Shown here piece after piece: positions 2,008-27,765 of a stretch of DNA of 38,759 bases. The stretch is from Escherichia phage mEpX2, in sequence record NC_019705.1; one strand, 5' to 3'. Position numbers and translations under genes: made by a program. Below the pieces are notes generated by a model. The model did no database searches and was not told the DNA's origin. It saw nothing but the letters and a program-made list of their open reading frames with translations. How positions within the stretch are numbered: the first letter of the stretch is position 1; every line of letters starts with the position of its first letter.

Positions 2008-3281
2008 TGGAAGAACCTAAATACACGATTGACCTGCGAACCAATAACGGCTGGTGGGCAAGGCTGCAGTCCTGGTTTGTCGGCGGGCGTTTAGTCACCC
2101 CAAATCAGGGCTCACAGACGGGGCCTGTTTCGGCCCACGGACACCTGGGCGATTCATCCATTAACGATGAACGGATACTGCAAATTTCGACTGTGTGGCG
2201 CTGCGTGAGCCTGATTTCAACGCTCACGGCATGCTTACCGCTTGATGTCTTCGAAACAGACCAGAATGACAACCGTAAAAAAGTGGATTTGAGCAATCCA
2301 CTGGCGCGACTGCTGCGCTACTCACCGAATCAGTACATGACCGCCCAAGAATTCAGGGAGGCCATGACGATGCAGCTCTGTTTCTACGGTAACGCATATG
2401 CACTTGTGGACCGCAACAGCGCAGGTGACGTGATCAGCCTTCTCCCGCTTCAGTCTGCCAATATGGATGTGAAGCTCGTCGGAAAAAAAGTGGTTTATCG
2501 CTATCAACGCGACAGCGAATACGCCGAATTTTCGCAGAAAGAGATTTTTCACCTTAAAGGCTTCGGATTCACCGGGCTTGTAGGCCTGTCACCCATTGCT
2601 TTTGCCTGTAAATCGGCAGGTGTGGCAGTTGCGATGGAGGACCAGCAGCGAGATTTCTTTGCCAACGGCGCCAAGTCTCCGCAAATCCTCTCAACTGGCG
2701 AAAAAGTGCTAACTGAACAGCAGCGCTCCCAGGTCGAAGAGAACTTCAAAGAGATCGCCGGCGGCCCGGTAAAAAAACGCCTCTGGATTCTGGAAGCGGG
2801 TTTTTCTACATCGGCAATTGGCGTAACTCCGCAGGATGCCGAAATGATGGCGTCCCGAAAATTTCAGGTAAGTGAACTGGCGCGATTCTTTGGCGTACCG
2901 CCTCACCTTGTCGGCGACGTCGAGAAATCAACGAGCTGGGGATCGGGCATCGAGCAGCAGAATCTCGGCTTCCTGCAGTACACCCTGCAGCCCTATATCT
3001 CCAGGTGGGAAAACAGCATTCAGCGGTGGCTTATTCCTGCTAAGGATGTTGGCCGCATTCATGCTGAGCACAACCTCGACGGCCTGCTGAGGGGCGATTC
3101 GGCATCCCGCGCTGCCTTTATGAAGGCAATGGGAGAGGCAGGGCTACGCACCATCAACGAGATGCGACGAACGGACAACCTCCCGCCATTGCCGGGTGGC
3201 GATGTGGCAATGCGCCAGTCGCAATACGTGCCGATCACCGATTTAGGAACCAACAAAGAGCCCCGTAATAACGGGGCTTAA
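2004..3281 (+). CDS. portal protein (HK97 family)
   Basis: 425-aa ORF overlapping terL stop, followed by protease and capsid genes. Confidence 0.85.
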   Translation: MMEEPKYTIDLRTNNGWWARLQSWFVGGRLVTPNQGSQTGPVSAHGHLGDSSINDERILQISTVWRCVSLISTLTACLPLDVFETDQNDNRKKVDLSNPLARLLRYSPNQYMTAQEFREAMTMQLCFYGNAYALVDRNSAGDVISLLPLQSANMDVKLVGKKVVYRYQRDSEYAEFSQKEIFHLKGFGFTGLVGLSPIAFACKSAGVAVAMEDQQRDFFANGAKSPQILSTGEKVLTEQQRSQVEENFKEIAGGPVKKRLWILEAGFSTSAIGVTPQDAEMMASRKFQVSELARFFGVPPHLVGDVEKSTSWGSGIEQQNLGFLQYTLQPYISRWENSIQRWLIPAKDVGRIHAEHNLDGLLRGDSASRAAFMKAMGEAGLRTINEMRRTDNLPPLPGGDVAMRQSQYVPITDLGTNKEPRNNGA

Positions 3282-23690: not shown

Positions 23691-24398
23691 TTATGCCGCC
23701 TGTTTTAGTTCGTTAACTCTGATGTTCATTACCTGAACGCATTTAGCCTGCGCCTCCTCATTGCCAGCCATTAATTGCCAGTCACGCTGATAACGCTCGA
23801 TGAGTTTTTTCTTGTCAGTTTCTGTTGACGCATAATCGCTGAAGTCTTTCAGGATTTGTTCGCAGTCAACCGATGGAGATTTCTGGTTGGTATTTTCTGG
23901 TGATGGTTTGTTATCTGATGCTGGTATTGCCCATCCCGGCAGCGATGGAGGGAGCCAGTAAAATCCTGTTCCATCCTTGAGTTTTGCCCTGTGCCATCCC
24001 TGCTTTTTATCGAGAGATGTTTGTGCGAAACCTTCCTCAAGGTTATACAGATACCGACCGATTCCCCACTGAACGGCAGCGCGCTTCATTGCACCGGAAC
24101 GACCACCTTTGACGGCTTCTACCTGCGTGTTTTCAGCAGCATCCCATTTGGTTACCCATTCGGAATCAATCTTTATTGATATGCCGCATTCAACGCCGCC
24201 GTTGTTGGGAATATCGCGGTATTCATTGCGCCATCCTGCTTTGCCGCAAACATCGTCCAGGCGTTTCATGATTGCCCTGTTCGTGACATAAGCCAGCACC
24301 ATAGCCCACACCTTGCCATCGCGTGTTTTACCGCTTTGCTGTATTCGCCATTCGATATCTTCAGGGCTGAATGGCTCATCGAATTTATTCAAATCCAT
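23691..24398 (-). CDS. single-strand annealing recombinase (Erf/Rad52-type)
   Basis: 235-aa ORF upstream of ssb and exonuclease in a recombination module. Confidence 0.6.
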   Translation of the reverse strand: MDLNKFDEPFSPEDIEWRIQQSGKTRDGKVWAMVLAYVTNRAIMKRLDDVCGKAGWRNEYRDIPNNGGVECGISIKIDSEWVTKWDAAENTQVEAVKGGRSGAMKRAAVQWGIGRYLYNLEEGFAQTSLDKKQGWHRAKLKDGTGFYWLPPSLPGWAIPASDNKPSPENTNQKSPSVDCEQILKDFSDYASTETDKKKLIERYQRDWQLMAGNEEAQAKCVQVMNIRVNELKQAA

Positions 24399-24406
24399 AA
24401 TTCACC

Positions 24407-24577
24407 TCAGAATGGACATGGACCAAGGAAATAACGCTGATTTAATACTTCGGTCTTTGCCGCATTTAAAAAGACGCGAACACCTTCACGATCTCCCTTC
24501 TGGCGATACATTAACGCCTGCTGCGTGTACATGCGTCTCTGTAACTTGCTCTCCTTCACTGTGGTTGCAAGTGACAT
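24407..24577 (-). CDS. hypothetical small protein
   Basis: 56-aa ORF below track size cutoff; strong SD AAGGAG 7 nt upstream of ATG; stop abuts recombinase SD. Confidence 0.35.
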   Translation of the reverse strand: MSLATTVKESKLQRRMYTQQALMYRQKGDREGVRVFLNAAKTEVLNQRYFLGPCPF

Positions 24578-24656
24578 GAATATCTCCTTCGTTACCGATT
24601 AATTCTTTCATCTGACGAATGAATTCTTCGTCTGACCAGTTATCTGTAAAACTCAT
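24486..24656 (-). CDS. hypothetical small protein
   Basis: ORF with ATG overlapping stop of upstream Kil-like ORF; overlaps the 24407-24577 ORF in another frame so only one may be real. Confidence 0.3.
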   Translation of the reverse strand: MSFTDNWSDEEFIRQMKELIGNEGDIHVTCNHSEGEQVTETHVHAAGVNVSPEGRS

Positions 24657-24805
24657 TTCCTGCGATACCACGGATGGTTGATAGCTGATTTCATCGCTTT
24701 ATTTGCTTCAAGCCACATTTTTGAATCACCAATAAATCTGGCTATTACTGCTTTGTTCTGTGCAGCACGAAGCATCTGGTGATTAATGGCTATTTCATTG
24801 CGCAT
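24653..24805 (-). CDS. Kil-like small protein (putative host division inhibitor)
   Basis: 50-aa ORF with SD GGAGG; motif IARFIGDSKMWLEANKA resembles remembered lambda Kil. Confidence 0.4.
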   Translation of the reverse strand: MRNEIAINHQMLRAAQNKAVIARFIGDSKMWLEANKAMKSAINHPWYRRK

Positions 24806-24924
24806 AACGCCTCCAGTTGTTTCTTTGCTGCTCTGATTAATTGTTTAACTCGGCGTGATAATTCAGATTCGTGCGGGTAGAAAGCGGACATGACGCCGCT
24901 ACCCGCGAGCTGAAAGTGCATCAT
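24790..24924 (-). CDS. CIII-like protein (putative FtsH inhibitor)
   Basis: 44-aa ORF from internal ATG with SD AAGGAG; MMHFQLAGSGV...PHESELSRRVKQLIR resembles remembered lambda CIII; position upstream of kil-like gene. Confidence 0.4.
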   Translation of the reverse strand: MMHFQLAGSGVMSAFYPHESELSRRVKQLIRAAKKQLEALCAMK

Positions 24925-24999
24925 GGGTAACTCCTTATATTTGATTGCATAACGAAAATGCCTCTCGTGAAGCATTATTGGTATGCGGTAAAGCCGCGC

Positions 25000-25368
25000 T
25001 CAGGCGGCTTTGATAGTCATATCATCTGAATCAAATATTCCTGATGTATCGATATCGGTAATTCTTATTCCTTCACTACCATCCATTGGAGGCCATCCTT
25101 CCTGACCATTTCCATCATCCCAGTCGAACTCACAAACAACACCATATGCATTTAAGTCTTTCGAAATTGCTATAAGCAGAGCATGTTGCGCCAGCATGAT
25201 TAATACAGCATTTAATACAGCGCCGTGTTTATTGAGTCGGTATTCAGAGTCTGACCAGAAATTATTAATCTGGTGAAGTTTTTCCTCTGTCATTACGTCA
25301 TGGTCGATTTCAATTTCTATTGATGCTTTCCAGTCGTAATCAATGATGTATTTTTTGATGTTTGACAT
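25000..25368 (-). CDS. hypothetical highly acidic protein
   Basis: 122-aa ORF rich in Asp/Glu; preceded by terminator and SD. Confidence 0.55.
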   Translation of the reverse strand: MSNIKKYIIDYDWKASIEIEIDHDVMTEEKLHQINNFWSDSEYRLNKHGAVLNAVLIMLAQHALLIAISKDLNAYGVVCEFDWDDGNGQEGWPPMDGSEGIRITDIDTSGIFDSDDMTIKAA

Positions 25369-25388
25369 CTATTCATTTCCTCATAGAT

Positions 25389-25415
25389 AAAAAATCGCCC
25401 TCACATTGGAGGGCA
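25389..25415 (-). terminator. intrinsic terminator (early-left operon)
   Basis: On minus strand GCCCTC-loop-GAGGGC hairpin followed by UUUUUAUC. Confidence 0.45.
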
Positions 25416-25532
25416 AAGAAGATTTCCAATAATCAGAACAAGTCGGCTCCTGTTTAGTTACGAGCGACATTGCTCCGTGTATTCACTCGTTGGAATGAAT
25501 ACACAGTGCAGTGTTTATTCTGTTGCTTATTC

Positions 25533-25560
25533 CAAAAATAAAGGCCGACTATGCGGCCTC
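25533..25560 (-). terminator. intrinsic terminator (early-left operon)
   Basis: On minus strand AGGCCG-loop-CGGCCT hairpin followed by TTATTTTTGG; overlaps stop of upstream gene. Confidence 0.45.
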
Positions 25561-25741
25561 AGAATGGTTTGTATCCATGTTTAAAGGCGAAATCGTATGC
25601 CTCATCCTTAGTGCTGAAGTATTCATAATCAGCAAATCCATCACGATAAAACTTGCAGCACCAATGAGGCGGAATGCCATCCTCAGGACCATAGTCTTGA
25701 TGGAACACATCCTCGACGATGATATTTTCATCTTTTCCCAT
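25559..25741 (-). CDS. hypothetical small acidic protein
   Basis: 60-aa ORF downstream of N in early-left operon. Confidence 0.5.
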   Translation of the reverse strand: MGKDENIIVEDVFHQDYGPEDGIPPHWCCKFYRDGFADYEYFSTKDEAYDFAFKHGYKPF

Positions 25742-25803
25742 ATATCACCTCAAATAAGTGGTTTGCTGCCAAAACAATGAACCATCCGGAAATTCCAGAT
25801 AGT

Positions 25804-26031
25804 TCATAATTCACTCTTCAATACTTCCAACTTACTAATCGCCGATAGATATCCGCGCTGATAGGGCATCATCATTCCTTCGAGCTTGCCACTTCTTAAC
25901 TCCTCCCTGAGCAATTGTATTGCTTGATCAATAACCTCTGCCTTAGCGTCCTTTATGGCTTGCTTGCGGGGCTTTGCTTTCTGCTTTGGCAGATTTCTCA
26001 AGCATGATGGAATGTATGTCTGATTCATCAC
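25804..26031 (-). CDS. hypothetical protein
   Basis: 75-aa ORF immediately downstream of N gene. Confidence 0.5.
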   Translation of the reverse strand: MMNQTYIPSCLRNLPKQKAKPRKQAIKDAKAEVIDQAIQLLREELRSGKLEGMMMPYQRGYLSAISKLEVLKSEL

Positions 26032-26295
26032 TTACCTCGCTGTAACCTGCTTACTTGTACGATGACCAGCTGCGAAAAGCGCAACTTCTGGCAGGCAGAC
26101 AGTACCACCTTCAACTTCCTTCTGAAGCGTTCCGGCAAGCGAAATGGCTTTTGTTACGCGTGTACTGCATGTGCTATTTGCTACCCGGCGCGAAAGAGAA
26201 GCGTCCTGCATTGCCTGCTCACGTTGAGCCTGTCTGCGTGCTCTGCGGCGATTTCTGGCGTTATCGTCAGCCAGATATGTAATGACTACTGTCAT
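26032..26295 (-). CDS. N: antitermination protein N (P22 gene 24-like)
   Basis: 87-aa ORF with N-terminal arginine-rich motif NARNRRRARRQAQ; preceded by boxA/boxB nutL; first gene of leftward operon. Confidence 0.7.
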   Translation of the reverse strand: MTVVITYLADDNARNRRRARRQAQREQAMQDASLSRRVANSTCSTRVTKAISLAGTLQKEVEGGTVCLPEVALFAAGHRTSKQVTAR

Positions 26296-26401
26296 GTTGA
26301 CCTCCGATGATTGACTTTGGCGGTGACGCGCCGGGTGCTTATCTTCCGGTTGCCGTCGTGCAGCTGCACTTCACGTCACCCCAAAGCCAACTACTCTTTG
26401 G

Positions 26402-26443
26402 TTCCCGCATTTCGGCGGGACAATCCCATCAATGTTAAAGAGC
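26402..26443 (-). promoter_or_regulatory. nutL (boxA GCTCTTTAACA plus boxB hairpin)
   Basis: On minus strand boxA then UUCCCGC-CGAAAU-GCGGGAA hairpin, identical to the boxB at 28098-28117. Confidence 0.6.
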
Positions 26444-26490
26444 CTGCCAATCTGTTCCGTTTGGCTTCCAGCGTCCTGCTGATGGCTAAA

Positions 26491-26577
26491 GAATACTGTA
26501 GGTATTTTATTGTGTAAATACCCAAGGTATTTATTTTTGATGAAATAATGATAAGCAAATGAATACAAAGGATATTT
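26491..26577. promoter_or_regulatory. OL operator cluster / pL region
   Basis: Three palindromes AATAC-N5-GTATT (26492-26506, 26517-26531, imperfect 26562-26576) in AT-rich DNA between rex-position gene and N. Confidence 0.6.
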
Positions 26578-26662
26578 ATTTTTTCGGTGTCTGCTTGTTC
26601 AGTGCTTTTTATGCGGGATATGTGAAGTGGATCCCGATAGCTATTGCTGCCGGGATTATAGG

Positions 26663-27052
26663 TTAGTCAGCGAAGGTTAAGACGAGAATTACCTTAATGA
26701 TGTCTGCTACAACAGACACGGCCATAGATAAACCAAAGACGATCCAAGCCACAGTGATGTCTTCACTACCATCGTATAGAGTTCCGTAATCACTGGTGTA
26801 AGGCGTAAATGTCGCGCCTTGATACAATAGGTATAAGCTTGATCCATAGAGGATAAATGCAGATATCCCTTGTATTGCTATGATCACCAGAATCATGAAA
26901 CGAGCTGATCTATGCGCCCAAGCCTGGCTTATTTTTTCTGATAGAGATTTCGCAATAAAAGCATGCGCTAAGCCGTAAATTGTCGAGATTGCCAACATCC
27001 CAAAAAAGCTTGCTATAGCGGTTCCAACCATAATCGCCCCTTGCGTGATCAA
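26663..27052 (-). CDS. small integral membrane protein co-transcribed with repressor (rex/sie-position)
   Basis: 129-aa ORF with three predicted hydrophobic helices; start overlaps cI stop codon; located between cI and OL/pL. Confidence 0.6.
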   Translation of the reverse strand: MITQGAIMVGTAIASFFGMLAISTIYGLAHAFIAKSLSEKISQAWAHRSARFMILVIIAIQGISAFILYGSSLYLLYQGATFTPYTSDYGTLYDGSEDITVAWIVFGLSMAVSVVADIIKVILVLTFAD

Positions 27053-27765
27053 ACCAGCCTTAGTTTTGTCTCAATTGCAACGCCTATAATCTTGCAGTTT
27101 CCATTGATTGGCACGAGAGGCCATGCAGGATTAAGTCCCTTGAGGTATTTATTTCCGCCGTCGATTATCAGCTTCTTGAATGTTGCTTCGTTAGAGTCAG
27201 AAAGTTTTGCTATGACCAAGCTGCCGTTGATCGCCTCCCTTCCGGTATCGAAAAGAACGAATGTTCCCTCTGGAATGCTTAACCCAACCGGTGCCGTCAT
27301 TGAATCACCTTCCACTTTAAGCCAGAACGCATTACCTTGAATATGCGCGTCAGACTCAAGCCAAACATCTATGTCTTTAATGGTGTATGGTTCGCATGCT
27401 TCACACCACGAGCCAGCCTGGATACTGCTTAACACCGGATACCTCTTTCCTGCTCTGTATTCCCCTGCATACCTTACGTTGGCATCGCTCTTAAGGCTTT
27501 CTGCCTGTTCTGCAACCTTGGCAGCAATTGACTGGCTAAAATCAGCAATTGAGACTTGCAACAGCCGTGCAAAACCAGATGCAACCTCAACGTTTAGCGC
27601 GTTTCTGCCATTAAGATAATGCCCTACCGCTCCTTGGGTGATACCCAGTTCATCAGCGATTGAGTATTGGGTTATTCCCAATTCTTTCTTTTTTGACTCA
27701 TACAAAGCCTTAAGCCGCTTAGCGTCTTCGAGCTGTTCTGTCGTCAGTGATTTTTTATTTTCCAT
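27049..27765 (-). CDS. cI: CI-like repressor (HTH + S24 LexA-type peptidase domain)
   Basis: 238-aa ORF with N-terminal HTH, Ala-Gly cleavage site and GDSM...K Ser/Lys dyad; divergent from cro across operators. Confidence 0.9.
   Translation of the reverse strand: MENKKSLTTEQLEDAKRLKALYESKKKELGITQYSIADELGITQGAVGHYLNGRNALNVEVASGFARLLQVSIADFSQSIAAKVAEQAESLKSDANVRYAGEYRAGKRYPVLSSIQAGSWCEACEPYTIKDIDVWLESDAHIQGNAFWLKVEGDSMTAPVGLSIPEGTFVLFDTGREAINGSLVIAKLSDSNEATFKKLIIDGGNKYLKGLNPAWPLVPINGNCKIIGVAIETKLRLV

Follow-up and report, generated by a model that had tools for sequence, protein, structure and literature searches.

An Ea10 orthologue and a rare occupant of the ral slot in the leftward early operon of Escherichia phage mEpX2

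Positions 25000-25812 of the DNA of Escherichia phage mEpX2 (sequence record NC_019705.1, analysed over its full 38,759 nucleotides and referred to here as the window) form part of the leftward (pL) early operon of this lambdoid siphovirus and are read from the minus strand. This segment carries two small open reading frames (ORFs) that a preliminary description of the window had singled out as highly acidic and as lying between N and the cIII and kil genes; their coordinates (Table 1) and low isoelectric points (pI; 4.31 for the longer product and 4.57 for the shorter) have been confirmed. The longer ORF, of 122 amino acids (aa), is ea10, whilst the shorter one, of 60 aa and here termed orf60, takes up the position occupied by ral in lambda. 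Between them lies a spacer predicted to specify the small RNA (sRNA) PreS and to end at the terminator tL2a. The anatomy of the region and the identity of its parts are close to certain. Positions in the GenBank record PV340544.1, to which a 2-kb stretch around the two genes is 100% identical, are converted to window positions by the addition of 20021.

The 122-aa protein is confidently assigned as the orthologue of lambda Ea10 and as a member of the DUF2528 family. It is equal in length to the lambda protein and identical to it at 119 of 122 positions (98%), differing by the substitutions S50A, S70K and N84D, and it matches PF10800 along the entire profile (positions 1-104 of 104) at E 4.1e-46, scoring 156 bits where the cut-off is 22, as well as phrog_646 (E 8e-70). 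The lambda gene, also listed as 'ssb' and lambdap45, is located at the same spot between cIII and PreS/tL2a and in the same operon, and beyond these three substitutions nothing functional sets the two proteins apart. The product of orf60 is likewise matched from end to end by a protein family, phrog_37822 (E 1.1e-46, positions 1-60 of 60). As both matches are full-length and Shine-Dalgarno sequences precede both genes, the two ORFs are regarded as genuine genes and not chance frames. Searches with PADLOC and NCBIfam returned no matches for either protein, and searches of PDB sequences, using single sequences and profiles, yielded chance-level matches only. Homology to a characterised non-defence protein, which would have spoken against the role in host takeover or anti-defence first proposed for the pair, was looked for and not found in either case.

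In lambda, Ea10 is made abundantly early and was formerly mistaken for the kil product (PMC3961180). The gene is dispensable for plaque formation (PMC10695390), insertions of IS10 or of cassettes within it are viable (PMC2327257), and the role of the protein 'is not fully understood' (bioRxiv 10.1101/2024.10.31.621285). A search of the literature found nothing tying Ea10 to defence, and publications on DUF2528 or lambdap45 merely list ea10 as non-essential. Neither the Ea10 nor the orf60 sequence is present in the supplementary data of the accessory-gene screen of Silas et al. The family is nevertheless widespread, comprising 117 clusters at 90% identity, chiefly from Enterobacterales, and ea10 was found in 213 phage records; of 5426 complete E. 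coli genomes, 1479 (27%) carry it. More distant members (34-45% identity) belong to the early genes of Mu-like elements, both prophages and phages, from Salmonella, Oceanobacter, Burkholderia and Stenotrophomonas. In the five loci of this kind that were inspected (L006-L010), DUF2528 genes of Mu-like elements are located a few genes upstream of GemA/Mor, near a Mu Gam or RdgC-like gene, and one gene of this set comes directly after the gene for a family-A DNA polymerase, in a contig of phage origin that has a replication module of DNA polymerase, exonuclease and ligase. Since members sit in Mu-like early regions and in this replication-module contig, the Ea10 family is not tied to cIII and represents an accessory gene that several types of phage carry among their early genes.

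Upstream of ea10, the ral gene of lambda (66 aa) has been swapped one-for-one for orf60. Lambda Ral is a restriction alleviation protein that enhances modification by EcoKI. The two genes share slot, orientation and downstream terminator junction and are of similar length, but orf60 shows no detectable sequence similarity to lambda Ral or to Rac Lar, with no BLASTP alignment at E values up to 100, and no ral or Ral-like sequence occurs anywhere in the window. In the alignment with lambda, the unrelated stretch ends and near-identity begins within the terminator directly behind the orf60 stop codon, at GGCCTTTATTTTT, which is the 3' half of the hairpin at 25541-25560 and the mosaic junction with lambda-type sequence. 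From this terminator through the intergenic region and ea10, the DNA is ~98-99% identical to that of lambda. The suggestion that both acidic ORFs occupy the ral slot is therefore exact for orf60, whereas Ea10 is encoded in a slot of its own beside cIII. On its 5' side the orf60 cassette is bounded by a second, stronger hairpin (25768-25812) followed by a weak U-tract, so that the cassette is bracketed by hairpins; the upstream one might serve as a terminator or an RNase III site, or might mark a boundary for cassette recombination. A search for a promoter dedicated to orf60 gave no credible candidate, the sole promoter-like match overlapping its start codon, and expression of the gene from pL with antitermination by N is therefore presumed.

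The slot itself is polymorphic. A survey of 116 loci with a PreS hairpin, drawn from IMG/VR and redundant, so that the counts are only indicative lower bounds, found at least 17 ORF families in the ral position, of which Ral alone is characterised. Ral accounted for at least 33 of these loci, a 156-aa protein of phrog_1636 for at least 18, proteins with the nucleotide-modification-associated Nmad5 domain for at least 12, a membrane protein of phrog_3054 for at least 9 and orf60 for at least 3, with the remaining families represented by fewer. The ral position upstream of PreS is hence a hypervariable slot.

The spacer between ea10 and orf60 comprises 190 nucleotides (nt) and is ~99% identical to the lambda spacer between ral and ea10. 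On account of this identity, it is predicted to encode the Hfq-dependent sRNA PreS (LPR1), ending at tL2a, and the region has a predicted fold of -30 kcal/mol (z -3.4). The lambda sRNA is encoded between ral and ea10, terminates at tL2a and up-regulates the translation of dnaN (bioRxiv 10.1101/2024.10.31.621285). A scan of positions 24300-27100 against Rfam, which holds no PreS model, gave chance-level matches only.

These elements assort independently. A prophage of E. coli EC02 (locus L131, positions 2380-3060) carries an identical block of orf60, terminator, PreS and tL2a, from which ea10 is cleanly absent, the block being joined straight to the cIII leader; the sequence common to this prophage and mEpX2 begins ~25 nt upstream of the orf60 start codon. 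This arrangement shows that ea10 is a discrete module of gain and loss and that PreS is retained without it. Three further lambdoid lineages (L140-L142) encode 58-aa homologues of orf60, 75-80% identical, again without ea10, and here the gene is positioned shortly past N, either directly or one small gene downstream. The two families were not found together in any other locus. A functional pairing of Ea10 with orf60 was considered and is ruled out by this lack of co-occurrence, by the EC02 prophage and the three other lineages, and by the disparity between 1479 and 16 E. coli genomes that carry the respective genes. The genes ea10 and orf60 are thus independent accessory modules, separated by PreS and tL2a.

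The product of orf60 has no Pfam match; it is a stand-alone copy of a small acidic domain whose family, phrog_37822, has 27 representatives. An alignment of 26 members defines a motif of the form F-x-Q ... G-I-P-x-H-W-C ... D-Y-x-Y-F ... E-E-A, which orf60 carries, and an AlphaFold2 (AF2) model (mean predicted local distance difference test, pLDDT, 86.8) predicts a beta-beta-beta-alpha arrangement. The gene is scarce: of 5426 complete E. coli genomes, 16 carry it, and it is also present in phages mEpX1 and Stx2_5044. One apparent homologue was discarded: a 63-aa protein from a Logan/ENA contig (P0121), seemingly 58% identical, is a frameshifted copy of orf60 that past residue 31 follows an alternative minus-strand frame, corresponding to window positions 25549-25731, and the frameshift is either a sequencing error or the mark of a pseudogene.

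A possible role for orf60 is indicated by the partners of its relatives. In a 97-kb phage contig (L133), 11 nt separate the end of a family member (P0139) from the downstream gene for a 484-aa protein with a precomputed match to PF26128, the Gad2 family. A 322-aa protein encoded on two contigs (P0144) combines an N-terminal orf60-type domain (phrog_37822, E 2.9e-8) with a precomputed PF26128 match, and a 125-kb contig from IMG/VR (L145) contains a diverged copy of this type of fusion as an intact ORF. In its C-terminal part, P0144 shares homology with the Gad2-like protein of L133 (26% identity over 182 aa, E 2e-11), and the two proteins have PHROGs in common, including a 'nucleotidyltransferase' family. 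Another relative (P0136) consists of a MazG-like NTP pyrophosphohydrolase fused to an orf60-type domain. Coupling of separate genes is also observed. In Aeromonas phage BUCT696 (Chaseviridae), a gene for an HD-type 5'-deoxynucleotidase-like protein overlaps the start of the orf60-family gene that follows it, an arrangement of translational coupling, and in Deseoctovirus C1-like phages the orf60-family gene is first in an operon and is similarly coupled to the ParB-like and adenine DNA methyltransferase genes behind it. Gad2 has been shown experimentally to be an anti-Gabija protein and is a predicted nucleotidyltransferase (bioRxiv 10.1101/2023.05.01.538930), the mechanism of which is unresolved (PMC12904381). 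The mEpX2 protein has neither a Gad2 nor a nucleotidyltransferase domain; what it has in common with P0144 and its L145 counterpart is the N-terminal accessory domain alone. Because the domain is fused to Gad2-family and MazG-like proteins and coupled to HD and ParB-like/methyltransferase genes, orf60 may tentatively be assigned a counter-defence role linked to nucleotide or DNA-modification chemistry, at somewhat less than even odds. The domain could be a targeting or ligand-binding module that is also able to work alone.

Both proteins are acidic relative to the rest of the phage. Ea10 contains 23 aspartate and glutamate residues and 9 lysine and arginine residues (net charge -14), and orf60 contains 13 and 6, respectively (net charge -7), which places them second and third for negative charge per residue among the 65 mEpX2 proteins; the negative charge is a family-wide trait. 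The acidic fraction of the proteome is 0.116 ± 0.039, compared with 0.217 for orf60 (binomial P 0.019) and 0.189 for Ea10 (P 0.013), a moderate enrichment.

In Ea10 this property can be followed across the family. The near-invariant polar set comprises K5, Y7, E20, D22, H23, T27, N35, R44, the loop E90-G-W-P-P-M-D-G-S98, G100, K/R102 and D116. The number of acidic residues is held at 23.3 ± 1.8 although only ~10 acidic positions are conserved; Salmonella members that are 36-40% identical to the mEpX2 protein have 10-12 acidic positions in common with it, yet contain 20-26 acidic residues, and net charge remains between -8 and -21 throughout. Maintenance of the acidic total despite turnover of the positions suggests selection on bulk negative charge, and the pattern of conservation as a whole speaks for such selection together with a specific site of contact or ligand binding. 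The AF2 model of Ea10 is confident (pLDDT 95.3; predicted template modelling score, pTM, 0.87), and a fold search of BFVD with it returned one relative only.

Taken together, the explanation that accounts best for the locus is a three-module anatomy of orf60, PreS/tL2a and ea10, in which the two proteins act as early stoichiometric binders, and to this explanation as a whole we assign a probability of about 0.5. Most likely, both proteins would be non-enzymatic, would be made early and would bind and neutralise a component of the host or of a defence system. Ea10 in particular may be a polyanionic decoy or inhibitor that engages its target through a conserved contact site, formed by the ExDH motif, R44 and the EGWPPMDGS loop, and this target would be something conserved across Proteobacteria. 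That Ea10 works as a stoichiometric binder is put at roughly even odds, whilst its being specifically an anti-defence protein appears doubtful. Bolder, and on balance unlikely, is the double proposal that the orf60-type beta3-alpha domain constitutes a new portable counter-defence module, perhaps a nucleotide- or target-binding unit that would assist or regulate Gad2-type enzymes, would be able to act alone and would provide phages of the mEpX2 type with an alternative to Ral, and that Ea10 is, independently, a polyanionic inhibitor with a new fold, directed at a conserved protein of the host or of a defence system.

Several observations weigh against these functional proposals. When ea10 is knocked down, plating on laboratory strains is unaffected (PMC10695390), and the conserved polar residues of Ea10 could equally be read as an enzyme active site or a ligand pocket. 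Acidity is common to several unrelated mEpX2 proteins, 6 of 65 having a pI below 4.6. With respect to orf60, the Gad2 assignments of the L133 neighbour and of P0144 were not reproduced with local Pfam and NCBIfam searches and have the precomputed Pfam matches as their basis, being supported otherwise by the mutual homology of the two proteins and the PHROGs that they have in common. Gad2 or nucleotide-enzyme partners occur in only ~4-5 of ~10 independent contexts of the orf60 family, and mEpX2 itself has no Gad2-like partner beside orf60.

The preliminary description had pointed to DNA mimicry or anti-defence as a function typical of small acidic early proteins. Its anti-defence element retains circumstantial support, from the acidic count of Ea10 and from the Gad2 links and ral position of orf60, but mimicry is unsupported for either protein. 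For Ea10, the proposal would be that an Ocr- or ArdA-like imitation of the phosphate backbone blocks restriction enzymes or other DNA-binding defence proteins. The net charge of -14 at pI 4.3, the upkeep of acidity through turnover of acidic positions, the abundant early synthesis and the location among host-takeover genes are all consistent with this, and T7 Ocr and ArdA are likewise small, early and strongly acidic. However, in its predicted fold Ea10 is unlike the known DNA mimics, among them Ocr, ArdA, Ugi and Arn, and no fold similarity to Ocr or ArdA is seen. The charge is also less extreme, and Ea10 differs from these mimics in having a compact conserved polar motif. DNA mimicry by Ea10 is accordingly judged improbable.

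Three further assignments fare worse. Instead of a counter-defence factor, orf60 might be a small DNA-binding regulator of the AP2/integrase type, but no relationship to AP2 domains exists at the level of sequence profiles, and a regulator of this kind is very unlikely. Ea10 might be a soluble SPFH-like tuner of the FtsH/HflKC axis that biases the lysis-lysogeny decision together with its neighbour cIII; the structural scores against SPFH (band-7) proteins (HflC, HflK, QmcA and stomatin) are marginal, however, sequence similarity is absent, and Ea10 has neither a membrane anchor nor a coiled-coil extension. This proposal is attractive but weak and is likewise very unlikely. The historical label 'ssb', which many database records still attach to Ea10, would make it a single-stranded-DNA-binding protein (SSB), a function that is most improbable given its charge and a predicted fold with no resemblance to known SSBs, whether OB or any other known ssDNA-binding fold, and given that mEpX2 encodes a canonical SSB elsewhere.

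The weakest alternative concerns the strand. GenBank PV340544.1 annotates as a coding sequence an 89-aa plus-strand ORF that overlaps orf60 (Table 1), and this frame is likewise open in a divergent homologous locus (L003), so that orf60 could be a spurious antisense frame to the true gene. Comparison of orf60 with a 65%-identical homologue reveals 10, 14 and 30 differences at codon positions 1, 2 and 3, including 18 synonymous codon changes; the same substitutions fall as 30, 14 and 10 on the codon positions of the plus-strand ORF, the reverse of a coding pattern. The latter ORF begins with GTG and has no match in any of four libraries (Pfam, PHROG, NCBIfam and PADLOC), whereas orf60 has a strong Shine-Dalgarno sequence, the orientation of pL, its PHROG match, the 27 family representatives, fusions among them, and a call by the RefSeq Prokaryotic Genome Annotation Pipeline (PGAP), which annotates the 60-aa minus-strand ORF in E. 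coli prophages as WP_016063036.1. The plus-strand frame is open because orf60 contains no leucine and a single serine. A plus-strand gene is hardly credible on this evidence, and the substitution pattern, the lack of a family match and the PGAP calls in prophages indicate that the GenBank feature is a strand mis-annotation.

The remaining features of the early region are collected in Table 1. Directly downstream of cI, at the position of lambda rexB, is a multi-pass membrane protein that is a candidate for an exclusion function expressed by the prophage. The 75-aa gene between N and the orf60 cassette encodes a basic protein (pI 9.7) at a spot corresponding to the sieB and orf28 region of lambda, and its place is taken by unrelated genes in other prophages with orf60. 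Beyond kil lie two small genes, followed by those for Erf, SSB, an exonuclease and Abc2. Two small ORFs downstream of kil, at 24486-24671 and 24407-24577 on the minus strand, overlap and match phrog_2123 and phrog_1723, respectively, both described as 'recombinase'; with a pI of 4.5, the product of the first is acidic as well, and GenBank annotates the second alone of the pair.

Table 1. Features of the pL early region of mEpX2, listed in the order from cI to kil (window coordinates)
Feature	Position	Strand	Basis or remark
cI	27049-27765	-	gene order
129-aa membrane protein	26663-27052	-	phrog_6534, no Pfam match
N	26032-26295	-	PF25694, E 1e-16
75-aa ORF	25804-26031	-	phrog_5305
Strong 14-bp hairpin	25768-25812	-	covers stop codon of 75-aa gene; -19.9 kcal/mol, z -6.2
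Shine-Dalgarno sequence GAGGTG	25746-25751	-	4 nt before orf60 ATG, read from sequence
orf60 (60 aa)	25559-25741	-	phrog_37822, ral slot
89-aa ORF, GTG start	25511-25780	+	feature of GenBank PV340544.1; not regarded as a gene
Terminator-like hairpin	25541-25560	-	just past orf60 stop codon; -10.9 kcal/mol, z -3.05
PreS (LPR1) sRNA homologue	25386-25476	-	ends at tL2a intrinsic terminator, hairpin 25395-25416 and U-run
Shine-Dalgarno sequence GAGGAA	25377-25382	-	8 nt before ea10 ATG, read from sequence
ea10 (122 aa)	25000-25368	-	PF10800, phrog_646; GenBank product 'Ea10'
cIII	24790-24975	-	PF08134, E 4.6e-30
kil	24653-24805	-	PF06301

The region is thus made up of ordinary lambdoid accessory content together with one useful new lead: Ea10 is an already known orphan, and orf60, itself rare, comes from a family that has yet to be characterised. 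Ea10 is among the last abundant early proteins of lambda without a function, and its confident model, conserved site and apparent selection for charge provide concrete targets for functional work. Should it prove to be an inhibitor as proposed, this would supply a function for an abundant lambda orphan carried by roughly one in four E. coli genomes as well as by Mu-like phages. The strand of the GenBank feature opposite orf60 is also corrected. As a lead, the result for orf60 carries more weight, since it places in a polymorphic slot, the ral position, a tiny domain family that is tied to Gad2. If the orf60 domain is needed for activity of the Gad2 type, or inhibits on its own, it would help to explain anti-Gabija action and would provide a simple route for mining lambdoid phages for counter-defence genes.

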